A DNA stretch of 64,000 nucleotides, taken from the IMG/VR virus record IMGVR_UViG_3300025141_000018. The stretch is one strand, 5' to 3'. Both the position numbers and the translations under genes were made by a program. Positions 37,390 to 64,000 of the stretch are shown here, piece after piece. The notes below the pieces were generated by a model that saw only the letters and a program-made list of their open reading frames with translations, ran no database searches and was not told the DNA's origin. Source of the DNA: a virus. Taxonomy: Duplodnaviria; Caudoviricetes. How positions within the stretch are numbered: the first letter of the stretch is position 1; each line of letters begins with the position of its first letter.

Positions 37390-37390
37390 T

Positions 37391-38467: not shown

Positions 38468-38479
38468 AAGGAAAATTTC

Positions 38480-39553: not shown

Positions 39554-39562
39554 AAAGGAAAT

Positions 39563-39916
39563 ATGGATGAAAGATTACAAAAAGCATTAGACTTCACAAA
39601 CTACAGATTAGTGCTAGAAAATCAAAAAAATAACCTTAAACTTGCTTCAGATCAAAATCTCCATGTCATACATTCAGGACAAAAAATTAAAATAACGCAC
39701 TCACTTATTAGTTTTCTTGGTACATTAAAACAAGAAAAACAAAAGGAAACTACACTTATTGATGCCTATGATAATCCTGTAAAAATTGACAATATAGATG
39801 AGTTATTAAAATCATGTATTGAAAAATATAACTCAACAATGAATGACTGGAATATACAATTTAGTAAGATTAAAAAAGCAAGAAATATGGAAAAATTATT
39901 AGATGCCTCAAAATAA
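39563..39916 (+). CDS. Hypothetical protein (117 aa)
   Basis: MDERLQKALDFTNYR start with AAGGA RBS. Links the tail module to the glycan island. Confidence 0.7.
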   Translation: MDERLQKALDFTNYRLVLENQKNNLKLASDQNLHVIHSGQKIKITHSLISFLGTLKQEKQKETTLIDAYDNPVKIDNIDELLKSCIEKYNSTMNDWNIQFSKIKKARNMEKLLDASK

Positions 39917-40811
39917 TGGATTATGTGCCTTTGCATATAATAATGATGAAATCAACTATGTTGAAATGGCATATATTTGTGCATTACACGCAAAAGCATA
40001 TTTAAAAAATAATAACTTTTGTTTAATTACTGACGAGGGTTCCCTCTCGTATATGAAACAATTATACAAGCCTAAAATATTAGAAAAAGTTATCGACGTT
40101 GTAATGGTAACAGAAAATCCCCTTGAAGATATGGGGGAAAATAAAAATATACGGAATCATTTTGATAGTCCGTGGACTGAATTTAGAGCCCCATTTATTA
40201 ATAGCAATAAACACGAAGTGTATCAAATTACTCCGTATGATAAAACTATTTTAATAGATTTAGATTACCTTGTGATGTCAAACATGTTAGATAGTTATTT
40301 TGAAATGAATTCGCCAATAGGTATGTTTGTTAATGCAAAAAACATTCGTGGAAATAACCCATTATGGAAAGAAATATGGTTACATAATGCAGGTATAAAA
40401 ATGAAATGGTCGACTGTTATTGCATTTGATAAAAGTGACGAGGCAAAAATATTTTTTGATATGTGGGAATATGTTAAGGATAATTATAATTACTTTAAAT
40501 TTTTATATAACTTTCCACAAGGACTATACAGGACTGATTATTGTGTAAGTATTGCTTCGCATATTATGTCTGATTCAAAAGAATCAGACTGGTATAATTT
40601 TAACGAAAGAATGTACTTTAGTGATCAGAAAGATGAGATATATGATTTTAATGACGGGATATATAGCATTATGGCTAATGATCAAAAAGAAAACTGGAAA
40701 GACATTCCAGTGACATGGAGAGATGTAGATATTCATATGATGAATAAACGATCAATTAGTAGAATAGCACCTAAGGTAATAGAATATTATGAAAAAGAGC
40801 TCAACTTATAA
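39903..40811 (+). CDS. Nucleotide-diphospho-sugar transferase-like (GT-A)
   Basis: TPYDKTILIDLD (DxD), NSNKHEVY, YRTDY motifs. Confidence 0.65.
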   Translation: MPQNNGLCAFAYNNDEINYVEMAYICALHAKAYLKNNNFCLITDEGSLSYMKQLYKPKILEKVIDVVMVTENPLEDMGENKNIRNHFDSPWTEFRAPFINSNKHEVYQITPYDKTILIDLDYLVMSNMLDSYFEMNSPIGMFVNAKNIRGNNPLWKEIWLHNAGIKMKWSTVIAFDKSDEAKIFFDMWEYVKDNYNYFKFLYNFPQGLYRTDYCVSIASHIMSDSKESDWYNFNERMYFSDQKDEIYDFNDGIYSIMANDQKENWKDIPVTWRDVDIHMMNKRSISRIAPKVIEYYEKELNL

Positions 40812-41652
40812 AAAATGGAAGATAACGCCAATAGAAGCAGACTTTGGTATTACATTGTTATTAGATAAAAATAGTGATCCAGTACAAAAAGACTGTTTGT
40901 TTGTATGTGTTAAAAGTATTAAAAAATCATATCCTGATGTTCCTATTGCAGTAATAACAGATCAAAAGTTAAACATGAAAGAAATTGATTATCTTATTCC
41001 GCAGGAAATTGCTATTGATAGTTATTGGACTGATAAGAAAATTAATCTTTGCACTTTGTATTGGCTAACCCCATTTAAAGTTACGTTATTTCTTGATAAT
41101 GATTTTATAATAACCGACAATCAAAATTTTAATCAGTACTATATTGAATTAATTAAAACAATAACTTTTCCGCAAACTGTTTTAAGTTTTAGAGGATACA
41201 AGTTACCATATAATCATAGAGTACTAGAAGAAAACAATATTCAAACTATTCTTCCTCATACTTTTGCATTTAAAAGAGATGACGAAACTACGTTAGAGTT
41301 TTTTAATTTATGGTATCAAGTTTGTCAATATTGGCAATCATTTTTTCCATATGTTAACAAGACTATTAAATTTAAAAACTTTGATTCAACAATAGCATTA
41401 TCATTGACTGCTCATATATTGGGCATAACTAAAGAAATTAAAAGTAATGTATACACATATGTACATATGAATCCGTTCTTAGAAAGAACATTTCCTGGAA
41501 TTAGAAATCCAGCATGGTCATCCTTCTTAAAAATATGGCCTTCTGACGATGGAATAGCAATAGAAAATTATAAAGTAAATAAGTTACTACATTACAAAGA
41601 TAAAAAAGTTATCTCAATATATAAGAAGCAATTACATGAGTGGTTACGTTGA
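40789..41652 (+). CDS. GT-A-like paralogue
   Basis: SIKKSYPDVPIAVITD and TPFKVTLFLDND (DxD). Similar to the preceding gene. Confidence 0.6.
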   Translation: MKKSSTYKKWKITPIEADFGITLLLDKNSDPVQKDCLFVCVKSIKKSYPDVPIAVITDQKLNMKEIDYLIPQEIAIDSYWTDKKINLCTLYWLTPFKVTLFLDNDFIITDNQNFNQYYIELIKTITFPQTVLSFRGYKLPYNHRVLEENNIQTILPHTFAFKRDDETTLEFFNLWYQVCQYWQSFFPYVNKTIKFKNFDSTIALSLTAHILGITKEIKSNVYTYVHMNPFLERTFPGIRNPAWSSFLKIWPSDDGIAIENYKVNKLLHYKDKKVISIYKKQLHEWLR

Positions 41653-42631
41653 AACAGTTGACAGGAATCATAAATTGTGGGTTTATAGTAACAAATATAC
41701 TGGTGCGGTTTTAGAGTTTAGACATAGACCAAGCGAAACGTATGATACAGAAAATATACGTGAAACATTGCACCAAACAGAAGACGTTAAAGGATACTTA
41801 GAAGAAGATGTTAATTATAATAAACTTCAAGTACACTATAATCCCGACATTCGTGATTACGATATAAAACTTAAAGATAATAAAATTAACATTCGTGTTG
41901 ATGAACAATCCTTATTTCAAGTTCCTGAATTTGAGTGGGATAATACGTATGGCGACATTAATGTAATCATTGATAAAGATAATGATGTTTTATATTTCAA
42001 AGTAGGACAACAAATATATGACGAATTACTAAACTTAGAATTAAGTAATCAAGTTAATATTACAACTAATCAAAACGTTTTAGAATTTTGGATTACAAAG
42101 AAGAACCAGCCACACATTTTGTTAGATACTTTAAAATTAAACACAAAACAATTTTTAGCAGATGGACAATATACATTTGATATTTCTGATATTAAAACTC
42201 ACGTAAATTATAATGAACTAAGTATTTTTACACAACGTCTTTTCTCAGATTATAAGATGTTTTATAAAAACCAATTTTCAGCAATACTTGAAAACCAAGA
42301 AAAATTTCATACAATTCAAGTAGCAATGCATGAAAAATATTCAGACTTAGCAATTTGGCAAGAACAAGTAGAACTAGATTATAAAACTAACACATATTCA
42401 AAACGTTATGCTTGTATGTCGTCTATTAAAAACTTTGCAAAGTACGATATTTTAGATGACTATATACAATTATATTGTGTAAACAAAAACAATACAAACG
42501 ATTTAATCGACGTTATACGAATACCTATATTAGAAATAAAAAACGAACGAGTATATAACTTTTGGATTAATACAAATGAAGAAGTAAACTTTCTTCATAA
42601 TCACCAAAAAATCTTAATGGGCATACAATGA
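41636..42631 (+). CDS. Hypothetical protein (331 aa)
   Basis: Long ORF overlapping both neighbours. No motif recognised. Confidence 0.7.
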   Translation: MSGYVETVDRNHKLWVYSNKYTGAVLEFRHRPSETYDTENIRETLHQTEDVKGYLEEDVNYNKLQVHYNPDIRDYDIKLKDNKINIRVDEQSLFQVPEFEWDNTYGDINVIIDKDNDVLYFKVGQQIYDELLNLELSNQVNITTNQNVLEFWITKKNQPHILLDTLKLNTKQFLADGQYTFDISDIKTHVNYNELSIFTQRLFSDYKMFYKNQFSAILENQEKFHTIQVAMHEKYSDLAIWQEQVELDYKTNTYSKRYACMSSIKNFAKYDILDDYIQLYCVNKNNTNDLIDVIRIPILEIKNERVYNFWINTNEEVNFLHNHQKILMGIQ

Positions 42632-43599
42632 GAATACCAATTACAGAATACGATGTTGTATTCATTAGTTATGATGAGCCTAATGCTGATGATAATTATG
42701 CAGATTTACTTAATAAAATTCCATGGGCTAAACGTTCGCACGGAATATGGGGAAGCGATGCCGCACATAAGGCGGCCGCGGAAATAGCCGAAACTGATAG
42801 ATTTATTGGTATTGATGCTGATAATATTATTGATCCTGAATTTTTAAATATCGAATTAGATGATACAAAAATTGATATGTCTGTTGATGTTATTAGCTGG
42901 AGTGCTAAAAATCAAGTAAACGGTTTAGTATATGGCAATGGAGGAATTAAATGTTGGCCTAAAGCCGTAGTTGAAAACATGATGACACATGAGAATTCCA
43001 ATTCTAAAGAAGGACAAGTAGACTTTTGTTGGGACATACATTATGTGCAAATGAATAATATTTATAGTACAATTTTTAATAATGCAACTCCATATCAAGC
43101 ATATAGAGCAGGCTTTCGCGAAGGTTGTAAGATGAGTTTAGATATGGGAGATGTTGTACCTGCAGACCAATTTAAAGCACGAGTACACTATAAAAATTAT
43201 AAACGATTATTAGTATGGATGTCTGTTGGTGCAGATACATTAAATGGTTGGTGGTGTATGTATGGTGCTCGCTTAGGATGTTGGATGACAAACTTTGAAC
43301 GAGATAATTGGAATTGGGTTGATGTACGTGATTTTGAATGGCATACACGTTACTGGAAAGAGAATATTGCTCCACAATTTGAAAGTGAAGTAAATGCTGG
43401 GGTAACCTGTACTTATACAGGTTGGACATATGACTTTGATAAATTAATATCTGAGACATGTAGAATAGGCGAAGATTTAAGATCAGAATTAAACTTAGAA
43501 ATTGCCGATCTTGATGATTTAGGTAGTAAATTCTTTAAAGAAACTTACACAAATCCGCCACGAACCGCTCCATTAATTAGAGAGGATCAAATAATATGA
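42628..43599 (+). CDS. Glycosyltransferase family 2-like
   Basis: DVVFISYDEP, AHKAAA, FIGIDADN (DxD), YGNGGIKCW, AYRAGFREGCK motifs. Confidence 0.7.
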   Translation: MRIPITEYDVVFISYDEPNADDNYADLLNKIPWAKRSHGIWGSDAAHKAAAEIAETDRFIGIDADNIIDPEFLNIELDDTKIDMSVDVISWSAKNQVNGLVYGNGGIKCWPKAVVENMMTHENSNSKEGQVDFCWDIHYVQMNNIYSTIFNNATPYQAYRAGFREGCKMSLDMGDVVPADQFKARVHYKNYKRLLVWMSVGADTLNGWWCMYGARLGCWMTNFERDNWNWVDVRDFEWHTRYWKENIAPQFESEVNAGVTCTYTGWTYDFDKLISETCRIGEDLRSELNLEIADLDDLGSKFFKETYTNPPRTAPLIREDQII

Positions 43600-43650
43600 G
43601 TATATTAAATGAAAATTGGGAAATATGAGTATATTAAATGAAAATTGGGA
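43593..43650 (+). repeat. Perfect 29-bp tandem duplication spanning a stop/start junction
   Basis: AATATGAGTATATTAAATGAAAATTGGGA at 43593-43621 and again at 43622-43650. Confidence 0.9.
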
Positions 43651-45133
43651 AAAAAGAGGTAATTATATAGTTCATTCGTCGCATAATTTTGAATTAATGA
43701 AAAACAAACAAGACGAAATAGGTCCTGGGTTTTGTATAGCAAAGTGGAATCAAGTTTCGTTACATTTAGAAACAGGATTAACACATAGTTGTCATCATCC
43801 AACAGCTCATGAAATACCGTTAGCAGAATTAGAAAAAAATCCTTCTGCATTACACAATACAGAGTTTAAAAAACAACAAAGAAAACTCATGCTTGAAGGT
43901 AATAGGCCTAAAGAATGCGATTATTGTTGGCGTATTGAAGATCAAAATCAGTATAGCGATCGGCAAATGAAAACTATCGAGCCTTGGGCATTAAAAGATT
44001 TTGATGAAATAAGTTTAATGACCGGTGATGAAAATGTTCCTCCAAAATATTTAGAAGTTAGTTTTACTAATGCATGTAATCAAAAATGTATATATTGTGG
44101 GCCTGAATTTAGTACGGCTTGGATAGAAGAATTGAAGGAACACGGACCAGTAGTAGTTCTAAAAGAATATAATAACTATAAACGTATAGAGCAAGGATGG
44201 CAAAATTTAGATGATCTTTATTATAAAAAAAATCAAACCAATCCTTATATAGATGCATTTTGGAAATGGTTTCCAGAAATTTATGATAAATTAGAAATAT
44301 ACAGAATAACAGGAGGCGAACCTTTATTAAGCAAAGATACTTTTAAAAGTATGGAGTTTTTTTTAAAAAATCCCAATCCTAATTTAGCATTAGCAATTAA
44401 TAGTAACCTTAGTGTACCTGAAAAAGTATGGTCAAAATTTATAAATTTATGTAAAAATCTCATTACTTCAAAAGCAATAAGTAAATTAACAATATTTACA
44501 AGTATAGAAAGTTGGGGCGAACAAGCAAATTATGCTAGATATGGTTTAGATTTTGATGTTTATAGACAACGTATAGAAGAAATTGCAAATATAAATGATT
44601 TAAGATGTGTTTTTATGTCTACTTATAATATTTTGAGTGTACCTTCTTTTTATAAAATATTAGAATGGCAATTAGAGCTAAAGAAAAAATACAATACAAT
44701 AAATTTAGATAAAGAAAAACCATCACATTCTTGGTTGATGGGTATAGATATTCCGTACCTTAGACATCCTCAATATTTAGATGTAGGTATTCTCACAGAT
44801 GATATAAAAGAAAAATATATGTTACCTTGTTTAGATTTCATGAAAAACAATATTTCGTCAGACCATACTGGATTTGAAGAATACGAAATGATTAAGTTTC
44901 AACGTATTATCGAATCATTTGATGTTCCTAAAAACAATAAAACAAAATTAAGTATACGTAGAGCAAAATTTTATGATGTAATAAATGAAATGGACAAAAG
45001 ACGAGGTACAAATTTTTTAAAGACTTTTCCTGAATTAAAAGAATTTTATTTTGAATGTGAAAAAAATAGGAATATGATAAAATATGCAGTAAATGTAGTA
45101 GTTGATAGAGAAGCATATGAGTACGGTCCATAA
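43625..45133 (+). CDS. Radical SAM protein with N-terminal Cys/His auxiliary domain
   Basis: FCIAKW, HSCHH, ECDYCW, then CNQKCIYC (CxxxCxxC) and ITGGEP. Confidence 0.85.
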   Translation: MSILNENWEKRGNYIVHSSHNFELMKNKQDEIGPGFCIAKWNQVSLHLETGLTHSCHHPTAHEIPLAELEKNPSALHNTEFKKQQRKLMLEGNRPKECDYCWRIEDQNQYSDRQMKTIEPWALKDFDEISLMTGDENVPPKYLEVSFTNACNQKCIYCGPEFSTAWIEELKEHGPVVVLKEYNNYKRIEQGWQNLDDLYYKKNQTNPYIDAFWKWFPEIYDKLEIYRITGGEPLLSKDTFKSMEFFLKNPNPNLALAINSNLSVPEKVWSKFINLCKNLITSKAISKLTIFTSIESWGEQANYARYGLDFDVYRQRIEEIANINDLRCVFMSTYNILSVPSFYKILEWQLELKKKYNTINLDKEKPSHSWLMGIDIPYLRHPQYLDVGILTDDIKEKYMLPCLDFMKNNISSDHTGFEEYEMIKFQRIIESFDVPKNNKTKLSIRRAKFYDVINEMDKRRGTNFLKTFPELKEFYFECEKNRNMIKYAVNVVVDREAYEYGP

Positions 45134-46592
45134 AGCATTTTTAGAGCCTACTGTTAACTATATTAAACGAGTTCTCAATTCAAAAAGTAAATCATTTTGC
45201 GGAGCAAAATGGTATAATGCAACTATATGGTTAGGACAAGGAGTTAATTCTAGTTGTCATCATCCGCCTCCGCATCCTATAGACCAAAATGAGATTAAAA
45301 CTAATTATAAAGCAATTCATAATACAAAATATAAAAAATTAGTTCGTAAACAAATGTTAGAAGGAATCCGGCCTTCTGAATGCGAATATTGTTGGAAAAT
45401 AGAAGATAATAATATTAATAATATAAGTGATAGATTTCATAAAAGTGTAGTATATACAGAAAAAGAATTGCGAGATATTACTAAATTCAAATGGAATGAA
45501 GATGTAGATTTATTAACATTGGAAATTGCATTTGATAATAATTGTAATTTTGCATGTAGTTATTGTAATCCTACGTGCTCCGCTACATGGAGTAAAGATA
45601 TAAGAACACATGGTGCATATAATAGTTTACAAGGAGCAGATGATGTCGGTTTAACATTTGCTCAAACCGGAGAATGGGCGTTACCATATGGATCAAAAAA
45701 TGAGAATAATCCTTATGTAGAAGCATTTTGGAAATGGTGGGGTGCCGATTTATGTATTACATTAAAAGAATTGCGGGTAACTGGTGGTGAACCAACTGTT
45801 AGTAATAATTTTTGGAAATTACTAGATTGGTGGAAAGAGCATAAAGAATGCCAAGTAATATTAGCAATTAATTCTAATTTGGGTTTTAAATTTGAAATAT
45901 GCGATAAATTAGTTAAAGCTAGCCATTATATAAACACATGTCATATTTACACAAGTAACGAAAGTTATGGCAAACATGCAGAATATATTAGAGATGGATT
46001 AGTTTGGGACCAATGGACTGATAATTTAAATATTATAGCAAAACATAGTAGAATAAAATTAATACATATAATGTTTACGGTTAATGCATTGTGTTTAGCA
46101 AGCATTACAAAATTAATAGAATATATTTTTACTTTTCAAGAAACATATAAAGATATTAAAATAGATATGAGTTTTAATATCTTGCGGTGGCCTAGTTTTC
46201 AAAGTATTACAACATTACCTAAATATTTGGTTGAACAAAAAATTAAAGAATTGGAAGAATTTATAGAACATAATAGTCAGCCACCATATTTTAAGGAAGG
46301 TTTAAAAAGTCATCAAGTAGATAGATTAATTACTTTAATAAATTATTTAAAAAACGAAGTTGAAGGATTTGATGGTGCAACCGATTTAACCAAAAGACAA
46401 CAAAATTTTAAAGCATTTTATACTCAATACGATCAACGCAGAAATAAATCTTTTATTGATACATTTGCTGATTGGCCGGAATTAGTTGAATGGTATAATT
46501 CTTTAGATTATAAATTTGTACCTCAAGAACGAACTAGCGGTGTTCAACCTAAAAATGATCATTATAAAAGAGTGTTAGATGATAAAATATGA
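45102..46592 (+). CDS. Radical SAM protein, paralogue of the preceding gene
   Basis: FCGAKW, SSCHH, ECEYCW, CNFACSYC, VTGGEP. Confidence 0.85.
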   Translation: MIEKHMSTVHKAFLEPTVNYIKRVLNSKSKSFCGAKWYNATIWLGQGVNSSCHHPPPHPIDQNEIKTNYKAIHNTKYKKLVRKQMLEGIRPSECEYCWKIEDNNINNISDRFHKSVVYTEKELRDITKFKWNEDVDLLTLEIAFDNNCNFACSYCNPTCSATWSKDIRTHGAYNSLQGADDVGLTFAQTGEWALPYGSKNENNPYVEAFWKWWGADLCITLKELRVTGGEPTVSNNFWKLLDWWKEHKECQVILAINSNLGFKFEICDKLVKASHYINTCHIYTSNESYGKHAEYIRDGLVWDQWTDNLNIIAKHSRIKLIHIMFTVNALCLASITKLIEYIFTFQETYKDIKIDMSFNILRWPSFQSITTLPKYLVEQKIKELEEFIEHNSQPPYFKEGLKSHQVDRLITLINYLKNEVEGFDGATDLTKRQQNFKAFYTQYDQRRNKSFIDTFADWPELVEWYNSLDYKFVPQERTSGVQPKNDHYKRVLDDKI

Positions 46593-47736
46593 AGATATTA
46601 AAAAAATTCACGTTGAATTAAGTTCAAAATGTAATGCTAATTGCCCTGGATGTCCTCGAAATGTTCAAGGAGGATATGAGCTCCCCTCATTAAAAAAAGC
46701 AGAATTAAGTATAGATGATTTTAAAAAACTTTTTTTAAAAGATTTTTTAAAACAAATAGATTCGATTTTATTTTGCGGTAATTATGGCGATCCTATTACT
46801 TGCAACGACATTATTCCTATATTAACTTATATTAAATCATGTAGTGACGCAAATATAAGAATTCATACTAATGGTAGTCTTAGAACACCCGAATTTTGGA
46901 AAAACATTGCAACTATTCTTTCGCCATCTGATACGATTATATGGAGTATAGATGGATTAAGCGACACGAATCATTTATATAGACGAGGTACTGATTGGAA
47001 TAAAATTATAGATAATGCAACTTCATTTATAGAAGCAGGAGGTATCGCAACTTGGGAATATTTAATTTTTAAGCATAACGAGCATCAAATAAACGAAGCA
47101 CGTGAATTATCAAAAAAATTAGGATTTCAATATTTCGCTCCTAAAAAAGCATTTGGGTTCGAATCAGACAATTATGCAGTTAAAGCAATGCAAGTTGTTA
47201 ATAAAAATGGTGATCATGATTATTTTATACATCCCCCCAGTGAGAAAAATAGAAATATAGATGTTTTAAAAGCAAAGCAAAATAAAAACGAAAAACTATA
47301 TCCTCATTCCTATAATCGTAATAAATTTATTGAAGATTATAATATAAAGTGTAAAGAATTAAATAAACTAGTTTCAGAAGGTTATTTTGATTATTTAGAT
47401 GATGTAGAAGTAAGTTGTAGTACCATAAACAATTCTGAGATATTTATAGATAGTTTCGGAGGAGTTCATCCGTGTTGTTACTTAGGACATGTATCACAAG
47501 AAGCCGATTCACATGTAGAAATTCAATATGCTAATTTTATAAATATGCTAGGAACATCGTATAATTTTAATGGTATTACACATGGTGTTCGTTATATAGT
47601 AGAAAATTCATATTTTAATCTAATAAAAGAAACTTGGTCAAAGACTCATAGAAATGGCCGAATAGCACAATGCTCTAGAATGTGTTCAAAAAACGATAAC
47701 ATTATAGATAGTTTATATAATAAAGAAAATGCATAA
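46579..47736 (+). CDS. Radical SAM protein with C-terminal SPASM/twitch domain
   Basis: CNANCPGC, GNYGDP, HTNG, SIDG, and C-terminal SC...IDSFGGVHPCC...CSRMC. Confidence 0.85.
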   Translation: MIKYEDIKKIHVELSSKCNANCPGCPRNVQGGYELPSLKKAELSIDDFKKLFLKDFLKQIDSILFCGNYGDPITCNDIIPILTYIKSCSDANIRIHTNGSLRTPEFWKNIATILSPSDTIIWSIDGLSDTNHLYRRGTDWNKIIDNATSFIEAGGIATWEYLIFKHNEHQINEARELSKKLGFQYFAPKKAFGFESDNYAVKAMQVVNKNGDHDYFIHPPSEKNRNIDVLKAKQNKNEKLYPHSYNRNKFIEDYNIKCKELNKLVSEGYFDYLDDVEVSCSTINNSEIFIDSFGGVHPCCYLGHVSQEADSHVEIQYANFINMLGTSYNFNGITHGVRYIVENSYFNLIKETWSKTHRNGRIAQCSRMCSKNDNIIDSLYNKENA

Positions 47737-54037: not shown

Positions 54038-54046
54038 AAAAATGTA

Positions 54047-56136: not shown

Positions 56137-56138
56137 AT

Positions 56139-56687
56139 ATGGCCAAACATCAAGGATTAGTAGTAGTAGATGCATGGGATTATGATGCTTATATTAAAAA
56201 ACGTAATGAAATACCGTATTCCCCTGAATGTGCTAAAGATGGTACCGAGTTTTCTATTTTTTTAAATAGAGTTTGTGAAAAAGAAAGAGCAAACGGCACA
56301 ACAATAATTTTTGATATGGGATTTAATAAACTAACAGATAAAATTACTGTTGATGAAAAAACAGATTTAATATTACCATACATGTATGAAAATAATTATA
56401 TGAATATAATACAAAAACGAGGAATTGACGAATTATATTTTTGTGGATTTCATTTTGGATTATGTATACATGATAAAATTGCCAACGTAAGTGAATTGAC
56501 TGATTATAACGGTAAATTAGGCGTTATTATAAATTTAAGTATGTTATTACCAGTCGATACATTTAAAAGAAAGTTTGAGCGTTTTCATAAACCTAATAAA
56601 CCCAGATATAAACCAAATCATGCATGGGATTATTATTTATGGACACCAAAATGTGAATTTGAAAAAATAGATATAAGTTTTCCATGA
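56139..56687 (+). CDS. Isochorismatase-superfamily cysteine hydrolase, paralogue
   Basis: LVVVDAW and LYFCGFHFGLCI. Confidence 0.55.
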   Translation: MAKHQGLVVVDAWDYDAYIKKRNEIPYSPECAKDGTEFSIFLNRVCEKERANGTTIIFDMGFNKLTDKITVDEKTDLILPYMYENNYMNIIQKRGIDELYFCGFHFGLCIHDKIANVSELTDYNGKLGVIINLSMLLPVDTFKRKFERFHKPNKPRYKPNHAWDYYLWTPKCEFEKIDISFP

Positions 56688-56691
56688 CAAT

Positions 56692-57450
56692 ATGAAAAAT
56701 ATATTTTTATATGCTAATGGGTGTAGTCGTACCTGGGGCGGCGAATTATTTCACTCATTATTTGACAAAAATGATAATTTATTGGATTGTTATAATCCAT
56801 CACCAATTAACAAAGCACGATTACAAGTTACTTGGCCTGGCATTCTATCAAAAAAATTAGGAGGGGACGGAACGACCGCCAGTTTTATAAATAATGCAAT
56901 GGGATGCGGTAGTAATGAACGTATACTTAGAACAACAACAAACTTTTTTTTAAAGAATAAACCAGATAATCCTCTTGCAATTATTCAATTTACAGATCCT
57001 ATTCGAGGAGAATATTATGATGAAGATTTAGAAAAATGGTATCCATGGAAGGATAACTGTCTTGTTCTACCGCGTAAACTTAAAAATAAACATGGTAAAT
57101 TATATAAGTGTATAGAAGAATATATGGTTCTTGTTAAATATTCAAAACAATATTACGTTCTCTATCAACAAATGTTAGCCCTACATAATTTTTTCAAATC
57201 TAATAATATACCTTATATTTTTATGAGCATTTATTTTGATCGCATAATAATTGAGGTTGAAAAAATGTGTAAAAAGGAAAAACTACCCATGGATATTTTT
57301 AATTTTATTAAAGAACCACACGGAACTATTAAACTGGATAAAGAGTATGTCTTTCCCTCAAACCATCCTAATGAAAAAGGACATATTAAAATTGCAGATA
57401 TTTTATATAATGAAATACAACTATTGGCCAAATACTGGCAGTATCATTGA
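56692..57450 (+). CDS. SGNH/GDSL hydrolase-like protein
   Basis: ANGCSRTWG, NNAMGCGSNERILR, SNHPNEKGHIKIAD. Confidence 0.7.
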   Translation: MKNIFLYANGCSRTWGGELFHSLFDKNDNLLDCYNPSPINKARLQVTWPGILSKKLGGDGTTASFINNAMGCGSNERILRTTTNFFLKNKPDNPLAIIQFTDPIRGEYYDEDLEKWYPWKDNCLVLPRKLKNKHGKLYKCIEEYMVLVKYSKQYYVLYQQMLALHNFFKSNNIPYIFMSIYFDRIIIEVEKMCKKEKLPMDIFNFIKEPHGTIKLDKEYVFPSNHPNEKGHIKIADILYNEIQLLAKYWQYH

Positions 57451-57511
57451 TTTATGTAATAATAATTATACGCAAGAATTAACTGAAAAGATAAAAATAT
57501 ATAAAGGATAA
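57446..57511 (+). pseudogene. Remnant copy of the 3-prime part of the 49353 cysteine hydrolase gene
   Basis: 57446-57485 matches 49731-49770 at 37 of 40 nt (IDLCNNNYTQ vs IDLCDNNYTQ). Confidence 0.65.
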
Positions 57512-57514
57512 ATT

Positions 57515-58795
57515 ATGAATATAGGATTTATAGGATTAGGTAAACTAGGTCTTGAATGTGCCGAGGCAATGGCAGGTACTCATTATTACCAAGACTCAAC
57601 GTTTAACATGTCGGTAACTGGTTATGATATAGTAAAAAGAACTAGTAATAAGATTACTATTACAGACGATATAAAAAATACAGTAATAGATAAAGATTTT
57701 GTTTTTATTGCCGTACAAACACCCCACAACCCAAAATATGATGGTAGTATTCCTACATCGCATTTAGAAAACAAAGAGTTTGATTATTCTTATGTCGAAG
57801 ATGTATTACATAAAATTAAAAATTATATAACTAAAGATCAAAATATAATTCTTATTAGTACTGTATTACCAGGAACGTGTCGCGAACGATTTATTCCAAT
57901 AATCGAAAATACAAATTGTAATTTTATATATAATCCGTACTTAATTGCAATGGGTACAACTGCATGGGACATGTTAAATCCTGAAATGGTTATTATAGGC
58001 AATGCCGACGGAACCCGAGAATTGGATTCTCCGACAAGCAAATTAATACAGTTTTATAAAATAATAATGCAAAAGCATGATACAAGATTTGAAGTAGGTA
58101 CATGGGACGAAGCAGAATGTATTAAAATTTTTTATAATACATTTATATCAGCAAAAGTTGGACTTGTTAATATGATACAAGATGTTGCTGAACGCAGTGG
58201 TAATATAAATTGTGATATTGTTGCTAATGCTATTGCCAAATGTACACAACGTATTATGGGTAAAGCATATATGAAACCAGGTATGGGCGATGGTGGGCCT
58301 TGTCATCCTAGAGACAATATTGCATTACGATATCTAGCAGAAAAATTAGATTTAGGGTATGATTTATTTGATGCTATAATGACCGCAAGAGAAGTTCAAG
58401 CAAAGCGTATGGCTGAAAAACTTATTAGTTTTAACATGCCGATTGTTATTTTAGGAAAATCATTTAAACCTGATGTTGAATTTACAGATGGCAGTAGTAG
58501 TATGTTAGTAGGTCATTATGTAAAAGAACTTGCCCCACATTTAGATTTATATTACGACGAAAACCCACAAAATACATTTGAACCTATTACAGAAGAAATA
58601 CACGATATACCTTGTGTATATTTGTTAGGGCATAGAGGCAAACACCATAATTTTACCTTTAATTGGGATAGTATTATTGTAGATCCATGGCGAGAGTTTA
58701 CAACAGATAATCATCACAATTCACTTATAGGAATTAAAAAAGTAATACATTATGGAAATACACGATCATTTGATTACAAGTGGTTGCAGTTTTAG
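57515..58795 (+). CDS. UDP-glucose/GDP-mannose dehydrogenase family
   Basis: IGFIGLGKLG Rossmann motif, AVQTP, STVLPGT, YNP, K..YNTF, GMGDGGPCHPRD (catalytic Cys), GKSFKP. Confidence 0.9.
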   Translation: MNIGFIGLGKLGLECAEAMAGTHYYQDSTFNMSVTGYDIVKRTSNKITITDDIKNTVIDKDFVFIAVQTPHNPKYDGSIPTSHLENKEFDYSYVEDVLHKIKNYITKDQNIILISTVLPGTCRERFIPIIENTNCNFIYNPYLIAMGTTAWDMLNPEMVIIGNADGTRELDSPTSKLIQFYKIIMQKHDTRFEVGTWDEAECIKIFYNTFISAKVGLVNMIQDVAERSGNINCDIVANAIAKCTQRIMGKAYMKPGMGDGGPCHPRDNIALRYLAEKLDLGYDLFDAIMTAREVQAKRMAEKLISFNMPIVILGKSFKPDVEFTDGSSSMLVGHYVKELAPHLDLYYDENPQNTFEPITEEIHDIPCVYLLGHRGKHHNFTFNWDSIIVDPWREFTTDNHHNSLIGIKKVIHYGNTRSFDYKWLQF

Positions 58796-59516
58796 TGAGG
58801 TCAGAGATCTCAACACTTGGCCTTATTACATACAGCAACATTACAATATTAGTGCAAATCATTATGGTATGGGCAGTCAAGGTAATGGATTGATATCAAG
58901 GAAAGCACATTGGGCAATAGAAAAATACAAAGACAGATCTCTTTTAGTTATGGTCATGTGGAGTCATCCAGGTAGACATGAATTTTATGATAGCAATCAG
59001 TCTGATCTAACTTACAATAAGTATAGTGTTAATTTTATACCAGGTGTTGCAAGTGGTAGTTGGGGAATAATAAACTATAACTGGGACAGCCATAAAAATA
59101 AAGATATAAAATGGCTTGCTCCACATGATACAGCAACTATAGAAAAGTGTAAAGCATTTTACAATAGTATCTACAATGATGTGTATATGCAAATTCTAAC
59201 ATTAGAACATATACTAAGATTACAAACATATCTAAAATTTAACAAAATAAATTATGTATTTATGAAGTATACTGACGAAGTTTTTGCTTTTGAGGATAAC
59301 CCAGAATGTTCATGGTTATACCGACAATTGGACTTTGATAATTTTATTGAACAGTCTTGCTTTGAATGGTGTAGAGATTATAGTGGTATTGATATGCCTA
59401 AAACGTATTATACAAAAGATAATAAACATCGGGCAGTTTGGTTTGAACATCCTAATACACAACAACACGAAAGATATGCACATGATGTGATAGTGCCGCA
59501 TTTGGCGAGAGTTTAG
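58752..59516 (+). CDS. SGNH/GDSL hydrolase-like protein
   Basis: TSGCSFSE, GMGSQGNGLI, VMWS, EHPNTQQH. Confidence 0.65.
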   Translation: MEIHDHLITSGCSFSEVRDLNTWPYYIQQHYNISANHYGMGSQGNGLISRKAHWAIEKYKDRSLLVMVMWSHPGRHEFYDSNQSDLTYNKYSVNFIPGVASGSWGIINYNWDSHKNKDIKWLAPHDTATIEKCKAFYNSIYNDVYMQILTLEHILRLQTYLKFNKINYVFMKYTDEVFAFEDNPECSWLYRQLDFDNFIEQSCFEWCRDYSGIDMPKTYYTKDNKHRAVWFEHPNTQQHERYAHDVIVPHLARV

Positions 59517-59538
59517 AACAGAATGGAGATACACAAAA

Positions 59539-61026
59539 ATGATACTTAAAAACATTAATAAAAATGAGGGGGAAAACCCTGTGCTACTCGAATGGATACC
59601 TACTCTTTTTAAATTACACATATCAGAAACATATTATAAAGATAAAAATCAATGGAATAAATTATTATCATTTATTGATTTTAATGTAAAAGATCATAAA
59701 ATGAGTATCGAAGATACGATATATGATGAGAATGGCGCAAAGATTATAATTATAAATCTTCTATGCAAAAATCTTCTTAGTGACTGTCGTTATTTCCATC
59801 CAAGAACAACCTTCAACGCGACATTGCTTCCTTTATATAAACATAATTTATATAGGGGATTCCGCAATATGAAACATATAACACCAGAAAAAGAATATTA
59901 TTACTATTTTATAAATTTTGGTGACATATTGTTTTCTTATTTGTATAAGAACAGGCCTGATTCGTATAATTTAAAAGATAAAATAAAATTTACTATTAAT
60001 GATATTTTAAAAACAAAGTTAGATGAAGGCAATACAAAAATATTATTAAACACATCTAACGAATGTGTTGTTCCTGAATTAGTGGAATGGGATTATTTTT
60101 ATGATATGGTTCAACGACCTCCGACTGATTTTATTCATTTAACAGGCGATGCAAGATTACAAACTTCTGATTATATACCTACAATATATCATAATTGTTG
60201 GGAAAGAGCGGTATGTACATATAAAATGCACTACGCCGAACATATAATGAAAAAAATAGAAAATATTAAAAAGAAAAAAGAAGTTAAATGGCATGGGTTA
60301 TGTTTAAACAGAATTACTAAACCTCATCGAATTATAATGTGTAAATTTTTTGATGAACACTTAAAAGATAAAATAAATTACAGTTTTGGTATTCAGACTT
60401 TAACTTTTCATGAACTACATCCCGGATTTAAAGGTGGGGATCACGAAAAGTTAAAGACGATTGATAAGATTTTGATAGGCAACGAATGGTTTTATGGAAC
60501 AGATAATTTTAAAGAAAAGCGAGACGATACACAAATTTGGATTAAAAATCATGGAGAAAAAAATGCCGACAATGATTATTGTGATATGGGTTATAACATG
60601 AATAGTGAAATGCATGAAGATTCATATCATAACTCATATTTTAATATTGTTACTGAATCAGCTTGCCATGAATGGGAGGAGTCTACAACATTTCTTACTG
60701 AAAAAATTTTTAAACCAATATTATGGTATCAACCATTTATAATAGTTGGCCAGCCATATTCAATAGACTTTTTAAGGAAGTGTCATTATGATGTTTTTGA
60801 TGATATAATAGATCATTCATATGACGAGGTGTCACCTTTTGTAGAAAGAATTGATCTAATTAAGAAGGAAATAAAACGCCTTTGTGAAATATCTAAGAAA
60901 GAATGGGCCGATATTCTTTACAATATTTTACCTAGATTAAGTATAAATCATAAAACATTAGAAAAAGCCTTTTTAAAATTTAATGAATTAGACAGACCTT
61001 TATACAAAGGAGAATATTTAACTTAA
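59539..61026 (+). CDS. GT10-like glycosyltransferase, paralogue 4
   Basis: WHGLCLNRITKPHR...YFNIVTE...LTEKIFKPILWYQPFIIVG...DVFDDIIDHSYD. Confidence 0.55.
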   Translation: MILKNINKNEGENPVLLEWIPTLFKLHISETYYKDKNQWNKLLSFIDFNVKDHKMSIEDTIYDENGAKIIIINLLCKNLLSDCRYFHPRTTFNATLLPLYKHNLYRGFRNMKHITPEKEYYYYFINFGDILFSYLYKNRPDSYNLKDKIKFTINDILKTKLDEGNTKILLNTSNECVVPELVEWDYFYDMVQRPPTDFIHLTGDARLQTSDYIPTIYHNCWERAVCTYKMHYAEHIMKKIENIKKKKEVKWHGLCLNRITKPHRIIMCKFFDEHLKDKINYSFGIQTLTFHELHPGFKGGDHEKLKTIDKILIGNEWFYGTDNFKEKRDDTQIWIKNHGEKNADNDYCDMGYNMNSEMHEDSYHNSYFNIVTESACHEWEESTTFLTEKIFKPILWYQPFIIVGQPYSIDFLRKCHYDVFDDIIDHSYDEVSPFVERIDLIKKEIKRLCEISKKEWADILYNILPRLSINHKTLEKAFLKFNELDRPLYKGEYLT

Positions 61027-61748
61027 TGAATAAAATAAATTACATAGTCGAATGGATTAAAAAATATGCTGTTGATAATAATTTTTCTAATCTAGTTATA
61101 GGAATTTCTGGCGGTATAGATTCTGCTTTAACAAGTACTCTTTGTTGTATGACAGAATTAAATGTACACGCACTAAACATGCCAATACATTCTGCAGATA
61201 AAAATACTCAAAATTCAAGAACCCATTGTAACTGGTTAGAAAATAAATTTAATAATGTGACAGTTTATGAAATAGACCTATCACAAGTATATGACGGTTT
61301 TAAAAATACAATGTCTAATTTTGAAAATGAACTAGGGTTTGCAAATTCGAAAGCCAGGTTACGTATGACTACTCTGTATCAAGTTGCTTCGAGTGTTAAA
61401 GGTTTGGTGGTAGGTACCGGTAATAAAGTAGAAGATTTTGGTGTTGGGTTTTATACAAAATACGGTGACGGTGGTGTAGATATTTCTCCTATTGCAGATT
61501 TATATAAAACTGAGGTATATAAATGTGCGGAACAGTTAGATATACACGAAGATATTTTAAATGCGCCACCAACAGATGGCCTATGGGAAGACAACAGAAC
61601 TGACCAAGATCAATTAGGTTTGTCATATGAAATATTAGAACAATGTATGGAAAATAAAGCAAGTGACGAGCATCAAAAAATATATAATAAAATCCGGAAA
61701 CCAAATTTACATAAAATAATTCCTATTCCAATTTGTAGACTAACCTAG
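61026..61748 (+). CDS. nadE: NH3-dependent NAD+ synthetase
   Basis: IGISGGIDS PP-loop, NSKARLRM, VVGTGNKVE..VGFYTKYGDGGVDISPIADLYKTEV, APPTDGLW..RTDQDQLG..Y. Confidence 0.9.
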   Translation: MNKINYIVEWIKKYAVDNNFSNLVIGISGGIDSALTSTLCCMTELNVHALNMPIHSADKNTQNSRTHCNWLENKFNNVTVYEIDLSQVYDGFKNTMSNFENELGFANSKARLRMTTLYQVASSVKGLVVGTGNKVEDFGVGFYTKYGDGGVDISPIADLYKTEVYKCAEQLDIHEDILNAPPTDGLWEDNRTDQDQLGLSYEILEQCMENKASDEHQKIYNKIRKPNLHKIIPIPICRLT

Positions 61749-61750
61749 AT

Positions 61751-62362
61751 ATGAAACTTACATTAAGTTATATTTGTGCTAACATACTTATATATGATAC
61801 TGTAAAAACATTAAAAGACAAGTACGACATTGGGATTCATATAGATTTAATGGATGGGCATTTTGTACCACGACTTGGTGTACAACCGGAATTAATTGAT
61901 CTTTTAAAAAACGAATGTAATGTACCTGTTGATGTACATTGTATGATTACTGCTAATAACCACGCCTGGAAAGATGTGTTAAATAGTAATGCAGACGTAA
62001 TTTATGCACACTACGAAGCATTTCACAGTAAAGAACACACACTAAAATTTTTAAAGCAAGACAGCCGACTACAACTAGCATTTAAACCGCAATGGACTAT
62101 TCAACAAATAAATGAAATTTGTAATGAAATGGGCGTCGATGATTACTTACTAATGGCATACAATCCTGGTATAACAAAACAAGATTCATTTTATGATTTA
62201 AAAAAGATAGCAAATACTACTCGTAAAGTAACAGTAGATGGCGGAGTTGATTTTGGAGTGTTAGAAGATTTTATAAGTAACAATAAAGTTAACCTAGTAG
62301 CAGGTAGCAAATTAATATTCAATTCAGAATATAAACAAAACGTAGAAAGATTATTATGTTAA
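61751..62362 (+). CDS. rpe: Ribulose-phosphate 3-epimerase family protein
   Basis: HIDLMDGHFVP, DVHCM, VDGGV, VAGS motifs. Confidence 0.8.
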   Translation: MKLTLSYICANILIYDTVKTLKDKYDIGIHIDLMDGHFVPRLGVQPELIDLLKNECNVPVDVHCMITANNHAWKDVLNSNADVIYAHYEAFHSKEHTLKFLKQDSRLQLAFKPQWTIQQINEICNEMGVDDYLLMAYNPGITKQDSFYDLKKIANTTRKVTVDGGVDFGVLEDFISNNKVNLVAGSKLIFNSEYKQNVERLLC

Positions 62363-62721
62363 AAGGAACAGAATTAATTAGTATAGCAAAACAATATTTT
62401 GATGCGTGGAATAACCAAAATACAAATGCATTAGATTTTTTATTTACTGAAGACGTTACACTAACAGATTGGGAAATAAGTGAAAATGGAAAAGAAAAAG
62501 TGTTACAAGCAAATCAAAATATATTTAATAGCGTTAACGACATAGAAGCACAAGTGCAAGACATAGGCTATAATGATAATAAAGTTTATGCAGAATTAAT
62601 TATAGAAGTACTCACGTTGGATGCAACAAACGAGGCCGAACGTGAAAAAATAAAAGTACTCGATGTAATAACAATCGAAGACGATAGTCGAATTTCGAGT
62701 ATTAGTGCATATAAACAATGA
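62356..62721 (+). CDS. SnoaL / NTF2-like protein
   Basis: YFDAWN...LFTEDVTL.DW...GKEKV...DVIT...I..I.AY pattern. Confidence 0.7.
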   Translation: MLKGTELISIAKQYFDAWNNQNTNALDFLFTEDVTLTDWEISENGKEKVLQANQNIFNSVNDIEAQVQDIGYNDNKVYAELIIEVLTLDATNEAEREKIKVLDVITIEDDSRISSISAYKQ

Positions 62722-64000
62722 ATTTATTAATCCCTTGTTCCGGTCCAGGCACAAGATCAAACAGTTACGCAAAATTTCATAAAGCATTGGTGCGAATAGG
62801 TGATAAAGCAGTATTATCGCACATCATAGATTCGTACGAAAATATAGATACAATTTATATCTTATTAGGCTCGCAAGCCGAGTACATAAAGCAATATATT
62901 GATCATTGTAATTATACTAATATAGAGTTTATAGAAATTGAAAACTGGAATGATTCACAGTTTACAAGTTTTAAACAAATACCTAAGCATGTATTTGACA
63001 AGCCATTCTATTATAATGCCTGTGATAATTGGACTCCGCATGTACCGGTTGTTGAAGAAAATACTATTTTTAATTATAACTCACCACATAAAGAATTATA
63101 TGATAGTTGGAACGAAGCCTCACCAGATAGTTTTTATGCAGGTATAAGTCATGTTAAAGATACTACAAGGTTTTATAATATTTTACACAACTCTAACGAA
63201 ACACGCAACGATTTAAACATATATCATGAGTTTGATGAAGTAAATGAAGTTATGTTAAAAGAATGGTATGATGTAGGTAATGTTGAAGCCTACATGGCGG
63301 CAACTGCATTTTTTAAAAGTAATTATGACTTATTAGATAAATCCAATCAAGAAATTTATTACGTTAATAATAGAGTTATAAAACTATTTAAAAATACAGT
63401 TGAGGAGTTGCAACAATCGCTAGAGTCAAATCATTGCTTCCCTCATCCAAGTCCTTTACACGGAACTAACAATGGTATTAGTTATGATTTTGTCGAAGGT
63501 AAAGTTAATTTAGATGTAGATTATGATTACTTATTAGACAATCTTTGTAAGTTATGGGACTTTACTTTAGCAAATAATAAAACAATTACTAATAAAGCAA
63601 TTTGGCAAGATAAGACCTGGCAACGTTTTGAAATGATATGTGACAAGTATCCTGAATATGCTGATACAGTAACAATAAATCAAATACAAATAGATCCTTT
63701 TAGAACACTAGAAAAAATTAATTGGACTATATTAAACAACGGAGTAGAAGGCCCATGTCATGGCGACTTAGTACTAGACAATATTATTATTAATCATAAT
63801 AAAATTAATTATATTGATCATCGCGAAGGTAACGTGGGTGATATTTTTTACGATATATGTAAATTTTATCATAGTTTATACTTGCACAATATAAACTTAC
63901 AACGTACAGAGTATTCAATTGAATCTGTTAACCTACCATTAACTGAGGTAGATCTAGAACGTATAAATAAATTTAAACAAACAACTTTATATCAAACATA
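62718..64000 (+). CDS. Sugar-nucleotidyltransferase fused to APH/choline-kinase-like domain, partial
   Basis: Manual translation from ATG 62718 is open to the window end: LIPCSGPGTRS...HKALVRIG (NTP_transferase), WYDVGN, then HGDLVLDN and YID (kinase Brenner motifs). Confidence 0.8.
   Translation, partial: MNLLIPCSGPGTRSNSYAKFHKALVRIGDKAVLSHIIDSYENIDTIYILLGSQAEYIKQYIDHCNYTNIEFIEIENWNDSQFTSFKQIPKHVFDKPFYYNACDNWTPHVPVVEENTIFNYNSPHKELYDSWNEASPDSFYAGISHVKDTTRFYNILHNSNETRNDLNIYHEFDEVNEVMLKEWYDVGNVEAYMAATAFFKSNYDLLDKSNQEIYYVNNRVIKLFKNTVEELQQSLESNHCFPHPSPLHGTNNGISYDFVEGKVNLDVDYDYLLDNLCKLWDFTLANNKTITNKAIWQDKTWQRFEMICDKYPEYADTVTINQIQIDPFRTLEKINWTILNNGVEGPCHGDLVLDNIIINHNKINYIDHREGNVGDIFYDICKFYHSLYLHNINLQRTEYSIESVNLPLTEVDLERINKFKQTTLYQT

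Follow-up and report, generated by a model that had tools for sequence, protein, structure and literature searches.

The DNA analysed here, a stretch of 64,000 nucleotides from a virus of the Caudoviricetes (Duplodnaviria; IMG/VR record IMGVR_UViG_3300025141_000018) that we call the window, is a piece of a large, uncultured marine T4-like phage, recognisable by a baseplate hub, by virion structural proteins and by an SbcC-like nuclease. Its last part, positions 39563-64000, is an island of glycosyltransferase, radical SAM and sugar-nucleotide genes that follows directly on fibre-like genes. We put a probability of roughly 0.85 on the reading that this island forms the first 24 kilobases (kb) of a longer cluster, at least 60 kb in size and organised around a conserved core, whose soluble enzymes build a complex, strain-variable glycan on whatever molecule receives it. 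A virion protein of the neighbouring fibre and baseplate module is our tentative candidate for that molecule, at somewhat less than even odds.

That the island is built on a conserved core is strongly supported. The core comprises a small gene termed o00, two GT8-like genes and a GT2-like GT-A gene, and often continues with a twitch radical SAM gene, a second GT-A gene and a methyltransferase-like domain. In the window, where the open reading frames (ORFs) behind o00 are numbered o01 to o25, the core region reads as follows (proteins in amino acids, aa; pLDDT, predicted local distance difference test):

39563-39916, plus strand: o00, encoding a small, helical protein without a known family; it opens the conserved core in every case
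39903-41652, plus strand: o01 and o02, GT8-like (glycogenin/LgtC-type) GT-A glycosyltransferases with an LDTD (DxD) motif; paralogues
41636-42631, plus strand: o03, 331 aa, in the variable position that separates the GT8-like genes from the GT-A gene
42628-43599, plus strand: o04, the core GT2-like GT-A glycosyltransferase, with a conserved V/IDADN motif; AlphaFold2 model with pLDDT 86.8
43616-46592, plus strand: o05 and o06, N-terminal-twitch radical SAM proteins (NF033640, E 5e-94 and 7e-86)
46579-47736, plus strand: o07, a maturase-like radical SAM protein (Pfam PF04055, 33.6 bits, above cut-off; CxxxCxxC at residue 18)

Related loci were collected in two ways. A first set was fetched through the GT-B family of the variable genes described below, and an independent second scan was anchored on o04. 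In this second scan, at least 579 IMG/VR stretches encoded a relative of o04, several of them from jumbo phages, and 80 loci were kept. The order o00-GT8-GT8-GT-A was retained in every locus in which it could be tested (64/64), and in 36 of 70 loci the GT-A gene was followed by a radical SAM gene at a distance of no more than 2.5 kb. Homologues of the three fibre-like proteins that precede the island were also found upstream in the 80 loci, the 358-aa protein in 58 of them, the 208-aa protein in 41 and the 357-aa protein in 32. Among the loci fetched through the GT-B family, the order recurring behind fibre-like genes was o00, two GT8-like genes, a variable gene, the GT-A gene and the twitch radical SAM gene. 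On freshwater contigs, the core stands behind a 6498-aa ORF and is followed by DUF6071 and GT-B genes, RmlC and three nucleoside diphosphate (NDP)-sugar epimerases or dehydratases. The slot held by o03 in the window is filled in relatives by other proteins, of 445, 184 or 113 aa, and the variable slot of relatives includes an NDP-hexose C-methyltransferase and a cytidylyltransferase-cupin fusion. Hence the comparison of gene order across related phages, to which the initial annotation had pointed, finds both core order and adjacency to fibre-like genes recurring through the clade, from the 64 testable loci to the freshwater contigs and the cultured phage described next. One locus (L074:3479-4006) has between its fibre gene and o00 a gene for a 175-aa protein that by eye resembles a 2-oxoglutarate (2OG)-Fe(II) oxygenase of the prolyl-hydroxylase type.

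The only cultured carrier of the core is the Ralstonia jumbo phage RsoM2USA (MG752970). Its ORF354-347 encode, in order, o00, two GT8-like proteins, a 184-aa protein, the GT-A protein, a twitch radical SAM protein, a second GT-A protein and a methyltransferase-like protein, and the block sits behind a wedge homologue, a giant virion protein, a sheath gene and a fibre-like gene. Identity reaches 42.5% between o04 and ORF350 and 38% between the twitch radical SAM protein and ORF349. RsoM2USA thus has the same core gene order as the window phage and homologous structural genes ahead of it, but its block is minimal, without GT-B, sulfotransferase or sugar-nucleotide genes, and all eight genes are annotated as hypothetical. 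An APS kinase gene occurs in RsoM2USA only, distant from the core. Searched by megablast, 50,697 phage records gave no match to the 24-kb island, and tblastn searches of the same records with o01, o04, o05 and o15 returned RsoM2USA or nothing, with no match for o15.

Individual core proteins differ in how readily they can be assigned. The o00 proteins of marine, freshwater and RsoM2USA loci are 31-38% identical and match no PHROG, and the single Pfam match, PF20753, is below threshold. A profile built from o01/o02 (alignment A3) gave 19 matches in the PDB, all of them glycogenins (GT8; best E 0.003) aligned over positions 8-115, as far as the LDTD motif; no Pfam family, PF01501 included, matched either protein. 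The top PDB and AlphaFold Database (AFDB) matches of the o04 model were all GT-A enzymes, namely hyaluronan synthase, TarS/TarP, PBCV-1 A64R, Mimivirus R699, RmlT and SunS, and the AFDB rows were named Glycosyltransferase 2-like. In alignment A2, the o04-type rows share the consensus V/IDADN, and no Pfam GT2 profile matched o04 or d05, the second GT-A protein encoded downstream of the window, at E up to 10. Against NF033640, o05 and o06 scored 315.7 and 288.8 bits (cut-off 170); their CxxxCxxC motifs begin at residues 154 and 148, and four N-terminal Cys residues are invariant in alignment A6. The best NCBIfam matches of o07 were SPASM-type maturases, every one below its cut-off.

In the window phage, the core is split by about 22 kb of variable genes between o05 and d05. 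Behind o07 these are:

47729-51090, plus strand: o08 (GT-B), o09 (isochorismatase-like, a weak assignment with D...C motifs read by eye) and o10 (GT-B); paralogous with o15/o17
51068-54037, plus strand: o11, o12 and o14, sulfotransferase-like; o13, SGNH/DUF6071-like
54047-57450, plus strand: o15 (GT-B, modelled), o16 (SGNH-like, by motif), o17 (isochorismatase-like, weak) and o18 (DUF6071)
57515-58795, plus strand: o19, a nucleotide-sugar dehydrogenase of the UDP-glucose/ManNAc type (PF03721 and PF00984 above cut-off)
58767-61029, plus strand: o20 (SGNH/DUF6071-like) and o21 (GT-B), a two-gene cassette present or absent among strains
61026-64000, plus strand: o22, NadE; o23, Rpe-family epimerase; o24, SnoaL-like; o25, NTP-transferase and kinase-like

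Much of the island consists of paralogues, which an all-against-all blastp search grouped as o01/o02, o05/o06, o08/o10/o15/o21, o09/o17, o11/o14, o13/o16 and o18/o20. The four-member group (blastp 1e-21 to 1e-79) was assigned by structure. An AlphaFold2 model of o15, made from the 40-sequence alignment A1, has a GT-B fold (pLDDT 79, pTM 0.83), and its top 50 Foldseek rows are all GT-B enzymes. The best Z score, 10.9, belongs to the alpha-1,3-fucosyltransferase of H. pylori (GT10; root-mean-square deviation 5.2 over 258 residues) and is tied with that of T4 beta-glucosyltransferase (BGT), 10.7. The consensus of alignment A1, SYxNIVTES...LTEKIFKPI, contains invariant E335, E347 and K348 and by eye resembles the YxTEK-type motif of GT10. 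None of the four proteins has a Pfam match (PF00852 included) at E up to 0.01, and 79 metagenome homologues are equally without a Pfam domain. The profile of the o15 family alignment found no match in the PDB, and the Atlas gives GT10 as a lead only (0.80). More generally, PDB phmmer and profile searches with o15, A1, A2 and o05 were empty or meaningless, and ten island families had no PHROG match save a weak radical SAM one.

The tailoring enzymes rest on evidence of varying strength. In o12, one stretch matches PF03567 (Sulfotransfer_2) marginally, at 22.8 bits against a cut-off of 22, whereas o11 and o14 have no hidden Markov model (HMM) match and were labelled from motifs read by eye that resemble the 3'-phosphoadenosine 5'-phosphosulfate (PAPS) loop (RSGGT/PRTGGN, YRxDxxDWFLS). 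Against PF19547 (DUF6071; cut-off 27), o18 scored 34.5 bits and o20 fell below the cut-off with 24.3 bits; in the Atlas, o13 had feature scores of 0.96-0.97 to DUF6071 clusters and a TM score of 0.61 to a bacterial GDSL cluster. The SGNH label of o16 comes from motif only, with Block I reading GCS instead of GDS, and we found no mention of DUF6071 in the literature. The mutually similar o09 and o17 are isochorismatase-like on weak scores (Pfam E 0.15, Atlas 0.81). NadE, Rpe, SnoaL and the UDP-sugar dehydrogenase gave clear profile matches; o19 reaches 150 bits against TIGR03026, below its cut-off, and has homologues at 35 of the 85 loci that were fetched first. The last ORF, o25, has 468 aa within the window and continues beyond its end, and its NTP-transferase and kinase matches are weak.

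In sum, the island encodes three GT-A, four GT-B (GT10-like), three radical SAM, three sulfotransferase-like, four SGNH/DUF6071-like and two isochorismatase-like proteins, together with one UDP-sugar dehydrogenase, NadE, Rpe, SnoaL and NTP-transferase/kinase each. Fold and profile evidence accounts for seven glycosyltransferases. The families proposed by the initial annotation are borne out by HMM, fold or motif evidence, some of it weak or motif-only, for 24 of the 25 ORFs; o03, with neither a Pfam nor a PHROG match, is the sole ORF without a family label. Its description of an island for sugar activation, transfer and tailoring also stands, with the families essentially as listed and textbook NDP-sugar enzymes in the variable slot of relatives. 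From family membership alone, we infer that the glycan may be sulfated and acylated. Across 34 proteins (25 in the window and nine downstream) there was no credible membrane segment, only two isolated hydrophobic windows, and no Pfam or NCBIfam family of an initiating phosphoglycosyl transferase, flippase, polymerase or ABC exporter.

The extent of the cluster was determined by walking identical metagenome contigs. Directly past the window, the nucleotide-sugar module begun by o22-o25 is extended by genes for a PHI-like SIS isomerase, for a HAD phosphatase and for a NodU-like carbamoyltransferase, after which come a 45-codon ORF, a methyltransferase-like protein and d05. The next ~30 kb hold nine more radical SAM genes, a 2OG oxygenase with a weak cyclophane-maturase match, a short-chain dehydrogenase/reductase (SDR) and an Asp/Arg hydroxylase. 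The cluster therefore continues for more than 30 kb past the window and measures at least 60 kb in total, with 12 radical SAM genes overall. The 45-codon ORF (L002:14063-14200, near 66.4 kb on the scale of the window) is flanked by the carbamoyltransferase and methyltransferase-like genes, is kept in four contigs and possibly encodes a small peptide.

Close relatives reveal how the variable part changes. In two contigs (L003 and L004), the flanking proteins are 100% identical to those of the window and exactly 58767-61029 is missing, that is, o20 and o21 (2263 bp; breakpoints by blastn). DNA identity is 99.8% on the left side of this cassette and 95.5% on the right, a drop that suggests a recombination tract. 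A third contig (L001), 90% identical, is without o13, o14 and o20-o22 and has one extra gene. The NadE gene (61026-61748) is strain-variable, being absent in L001 and 96-97% identical where its neighbours are 100% identical. Elsewhere, a pair of genes for dihydrofolate reductase (DHFR) and thymidylate synthase is found between the core GT-A gene and the next gene (L006:3021-4339) and is absent in a near relative (L007). Insertions appear to concentrate in the island, making it a likely hot spot, and the clean turnover of a cassette between otherwise identical strains points to strong diversifying selection on the product.

The island continues a long structural run without a break. All long ORFs of 22153-64000 are on the plus strand, among them the 25 co-oriented ORFs of 39903-64000. 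From o00 through the last ORF, 17 of 25 junctions overlap by 1-44 nucleotides (nt); the remainder are gaps of 2-22 nt, with the exception of 64 nt ahead of the o19 dehydrogenase gene. No intergenic terminator was found in the island, the sole plus-strand terminator-like hairpin (49006-49024) being inside a coding region. These counts agree with the original description of more than 20 co-oriented, mostly overlapping genes with neither a strand switch nor an obvious terminator. GC content is 0.32-0.37 in the structural genes and 0.24-0.31 in the island (40001-58000). Exact metatranscriptome contigs of 225 nt and 151 nt, from two runs of one study, cover 39749-39991 and span o00/o01; the remainder of 34000-53999 was matched by short low-identity pieces only, and no RNA dataset was listed for the 10-kb junction. 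These contigs are too few to indicate expression or its timing, and carry-over of DNA is possible. Upstream of the island lie:

22609-25956, plus strand: a baseplate-wedge homologue of 1115 aa, homologous to RsoM2USA ORF362 (E 4e-94), which opens the long structural run leading into the island
25956-36734, plus strand: a giant virion structural protein of 3592 aa, with CBM_5_12 at residues 2106-2138 (Pfam E 3e-12)
36763-39553, plus strand: three short fibre-like genes of 208, 358 and 357 aa, with matches to phrog_11259 and to virion-structural PHROGs
39520-39527, plus strand: TATAAATA, an element of the T4 late-promoter type, 36 nt upstream of the o00 start codon

What had been called tail fibre genes is therefore fibre-like as far as the three short genes go, and the rest is more exactly a wedge homologue and a giant virion protein. 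RsoM2USA ORF362 was annotated as baseplate wedge by its authors, and ORF361, the homologue of the giant protein, was assigned by mass spectrometry to a virion gel band of >288 kDa (PMC8504454). The giant protein has homologues in 93 jumbo-phage records (PA5oct, Atu_ph07, SCTP-2 and others), several of them annotated as virion structural protein; nearly all of these phages are without the glycan core. The CBM_5_12 module of the giant protein is of the chitin-binding type. The three fibre-like proteins contain 19-24% Ser+Thr, and the 357-aa protein (38480-39553), the last structural protein ahead of the island, has a run of Ser-Gly-Tyr repeats. This tract was rejected as a conserved acceptor, as it is absent from the homologous proteins of relatives, and could be a lineage-specific acceptor at most. 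A link to Cys-directed radical SAM chemistry or S-glycosylation was dropped, the structural proteins adjoining the island having only 0.2-1.0% Cys.

In the scheme we favour, the core would lay a conserved primer on a conserved acceptor, and the variable genes would then elongate this primer and modify it through sulfation, through the transfer or removal of esters, through carbamoylation and through radical reactions. Epimerase, PHI-like isomerase, kinase/nucleotidyltransferase and HAD phosphatase form a strongly supported private nucleotide-sugar route. A virion protein would be glycosylated in the cytoplasm before assembly. The recurrent position of the core next to fibre-like genes speaks for a virion target, and the lack of a membrane segment, flippase, polymerase and initiating transferase fits such a cytoplasmic protein acceptor. 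In the window phage, transcription of the island might be driven by the TATAAATA element at 39520 or run on from the fibre genes, of which the last ends 9 nt before o00. Precedent exists in the glycosylation of mycobacteriophage capsid and tail tube (as relayed in PMC12619734), and the capsid glycosyltransferase PBCV-1 A64R is among the best structural matches of o04.

The virus-encoded systems on which this precedent draws, that is, mycobacteriophage virion glycosylation (Freeman et al. 2023, as relayed in PMC12619734) and the chlorovirus and mimivirus clusters, resemble the island in using soluble glycosyltransferases on the virus's own structural proteins, with A64R and R699 matched by o04. 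By comparison, the present system is known from genes alone, and it has far more of them, with sulfotransferases, SGNH proteins and radical SAM enzymes among their products. It further differs in that the promoter ahead of the core is of the host sigma-70 type in most relatives, unlike the late type of the fibre genes. A more far-reaching version of the scheme, which we regard as doubtful, is that many environmental myoviruses and one soil phage share a fibre-linked 'serotype locus'. In this case, an invariant primer module would act on a virion fibre or baseplate protein, the hypervariable genes would add a sulfated, acylated, strain-specific coat swapped by cassette as in O-antigen loci, and the N-terminal-twitch radical SAM protein would be a new glycan- or glycoprotein-modifying enzyme.

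Several observations weigh against a virion acceptor and against direct coupling to the fibre genes, beginning with the promoters. The window itself stands on the side of the virion, with TATAAATA and no sigma-70 site upstream of o00; the element is depleted in the window as a whole (7 found against 21.6 expected). In the relatives, a near-consensus sigma-70 promoter, TTGACA-N17-TATAAT, lies ahead of o00 in 29 of 39 distinct cases, against a background of 3.6% of windows; these sites have at least 10 of 12 matches and stand about 50-60 nt upstream of the o00 homologues (L007-L017, L074, L173-L252). Among 167 distinct strong sigma-70 sites in the relatives' loci, 42 are ahead of o00 and two ahead of a fibre gene, and the relatives' TATAAATA elements are found ahead of fibre genes (14 of 51 sites) and never ahead of o00. 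With a sigma-70 promoter at o00 in 29 of 39 relatives, the core is therefore a separate transcription unit in most of the clade, where promoter sequences suggest that it is probably expressed early from a host-type promoter. The window phage and the freshwater contigs, with late-type motifs, are exceptions to this pattern, and ORF354 of RsoM2USA is preceded by a stem-loop, not a promoter-like motif. Several of the sigma-70 promoters ahead of o00 hold ATAAATA in the spacer, and overlapping early and late signals are possible.

The initial annotation had described the island as directly coupled to the tail-fibre genes. This holds for adjacency, which recurs, and for the window, with its 9-nt junction and TATAAATA, but not for the roughly 75% of relatives in which the core has its own sigma-70 promoter. 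As to early transcription independent of the tail genes, which the same annotation had set against its own proposal, the relatives' promoters point that way and the window has a late-type motif, both as read from sequence only.

Other observations also count against the virion acceptor, which is a leading guess drawn from gene context and precedent. The conserved adjacency may reflect common descent alone, and the end of the tail module is a usual site for accessory islands. Glycan chemistry alone does not usually involve 12 radical SAM genes and, downstream, 2OG and Asp/Arg hydroxylases. Known DNA-modifying phage glycosyltransferases give the same matches to A64R/TarP (GT-A) and T4 BGT (GT-B) as the island proteins do (bioRxiv 10.1101/2023.12.21.572611). 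Finally, the twitch radical SAM family (more than 6359 metagenome homologues) is widespread among Bdellovibrionota, whose genomes frequently hold arrays or multiple copies of it, and it is seldom near fibres there. In favour of a fibre link is one locus of a cultured strain (L111, Bdellovibrio sp. HCB2-146, NZ_JBLEQP010000001.1, 1962-20590), in which the gene for a 1965-aa fibre protein carrying a Peptidase_S74 endosialidase-chaperone domain precedes two twitch radical SAM and five GT2 genes. S74-type fibres were near the twitch radical SAM gene in 4 of 79 loci, with heterogeneous neighbours, and we treat this locus as an anecdote, a single case and not a pattern.

The alternative that fares best, although we consider it unlikely, is remodelling of the host envelope. 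The transferases would act on lipid-linked or lipid A-core intermediates, and lipopolysaccharide (LPS) or capsule would be changed during infection, either to block superinfecting phages or to keep progeny from sticking to debris. GT8, GT10 and GT2 are typical families of LPS core and O-antigen synthesis, and NodU-like carbamoyltransferases and sulfotransferases decorate secreted and surface glycans. The sigma-70 promoter ahead of the core in ~75% of relatives fits early, tail-independent expression, and the cassette-level variation among strains is like that of O-antigen loci. Remodelling of this kind is also the traditional reading of the large clusters of marine T4-like cyanophages, such as the 24 'LPS' genes of P-SSM2 (PMC1079782) and the 13 glycosyltransferases, sugar genes and radical SAM gene of S-SCSM2R (PMC12801897).

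The cyanophage 'LPS' or cell-wall clusters (P-SSM2, S-SCSM1, S-SCSM2R) belong, like the island, to lytic marine T4-like phages and combine many glycosyltransferases (GT2, GT10, GT11, GT25) with nucleotide-sugar enzymes and an occasional radical SAM gene; their target was never shown experimentally (PMC1079782, PMC12801897). Unlike them, the window cluster has a strictly syntenic core behind fibre-like genes that is common to freshwater and soil phages. It also exceeds them in size, with 12 radical SAM and three sulfotransferase-like genes over at least 60 kb, and has no detectable sequence relation to them (tblastn with o01, o04, o05 and o15). An envelope target is further disfavoured by the 34 proteins of the window and its downstream flank, which include no initiating phosphoglycosyl transferase, flippase, polymerase, ligase, exporter or membrane segment. 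Moreover, the core is common to marine, freshwater and soil-host phages (o04 42% identical to RsoM2USA; radical SAM ~50% among thousands), and conservation across hosts such as Ralstonia and marine plankton would require an acceptor common to them. The window module, for its part, is headed by a late-type motif and not an early one.

Hypermodification of DNA appears improbable. Here, the core transferases would glycosylate a hydroxymethylated pyrimidine and the variable genes would extend the sugar, in an arms race with restriction. One indication comes from RsoM2USA ORF10 (MG752970.1 7607-8443; L253:2608-3444, minus strand), a second ThyA-family gene annotated as hypothetical or 'putative thymidylate synthase'. 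Among solved proteins, ORF10 scores highest against T4 dCMP hydroxymethylase (83.6 bits) and CMP hydroxymethylase (75 bits), compared with ~44 bits for thymidylate synthases, and an SP-10 gene annotated as dUMP hydroxymethylase is among its phage homologues. As RsoM2USA has a canonical Td besides this dCMP-hydroxymethylase-like gene, its DNA may carry a hydroxymethylated pyrimidine; ORF10 is ~210 kb from the core. The tie between T4 BGT and GT10 among the matches of the GT-B model, the A64R/TarP and BGT matches shared with known DNA glycosyltransferases and the early-type promoter ahead of the core in most relatives would also fit, and radical SAM enzymes occur in thymidine hypermodification pathways.

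Several observations speak against it. The window and 30 kb downstream are without a hydroxymethylase, deoxynucleoside monophosphate (dNMP) kinase, dCTPase, methyltransferase-dioxygenase (5mYOX) pair or other base-modification gene. Nor was a hydroxymethylase-like gene found in the partial records of nine marine relatives, one of which is 91% complete but without the o00 core. Two of the nine have a true ThyA (344-350 bits), in one case beside DHFR (L006); the ThyA within the L006 island was considered as a hydroxymethylase and rejected, being one half of a pair of DHFR and true thymidylate synthase. To our knowledge, known DNA glycans consist of one to three sugars, and at least eight transferases plus sulfation, carbamoylation and ester chemistry exceed this. 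The core GT-A protein is strongly acidic (31 K+R against 51 D+E, net charge about -20), which from its composition is a weak point against DNA as the substrate of o04, and the late-type motif at the head of the window module again fits poorly. Compared with known sugar-hypermodification clusters of phage DNA (T4 alpha- and beta-glucosyltransferases; Pyle et al., bioRxiv 10.1101/2023.12.21.572611), the island has in common GT-A and GT-B enzymes with A64R/TarP and BGT neighbours and, in some of those clusters, sugar epimerases and kinases. It differs in that hydroxymethylase, dioxygenase and cytosine methyltransferase are absent in and near the island and in the sampled marine relatives.

Least probable is a pathway that is not primarily for glycans, in which a peptide, virion side chain or small molecule is modified post-translationally or as a natural product with glycosylation as one tailoring step: the 12 radical SAM genes, several of them SPASM/twitch, the Asp/Arg hydroxylase and 2OG oxygenase, the 45-codon ORF within the cluster, the twitch family without a consistent glycan context in Bdellovibrionota and an earlier T4-like marine genome noted for 12 radical SAM genes with no function given (PMC5332604) are set against seven glycosyltransferases among 25 window genes with about five more that make or activate sugars, a strictly conserved core of four glycosyltransferases, the core's GT-A gene being followed within 2.5 kb by a radical SAM gene in just 36 of 70 loci, and no precursor peptide, leader-recognition domain or protease recognised in the window proteins. 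That genome, TARA_ERS488813_N000010 (Nishimura et al. 2017, PMC5332604), has the same radical SAM count as the present cluster, and these genes are discussed in that paper solely as consumers of Fe-S clusters. Moraphages (PMC12619734) were considered as the same lineage and rejected, as they belong to a different one.

Sugar clusters of marine T4-like phages have been known since 2005, and their target was never settled. What is new here is the conserved core, the ~22 kb variable insertion and the clean cassette difference between strains. A syntenic core in hundreds of marine and freshwater phage contigs and one soil isolate allows the question to be framed on eight genes instead of sixty, and the cultured carrier RsoM2USA makes the choice among virion, host surface and DNA decidable. 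The N-terminal-twitch radical SAM proteins are an uncharacterised enzyme family with more than 6000 metagenome members and merit biochemical study regardless. Should the virion prove to be the target, large and variable glycan coats would be a feature of tailed phages that infect Gram-negative hosts, with a bearing on adsorption, grazing, evasion of defences and the stickiness of particles in the sea.

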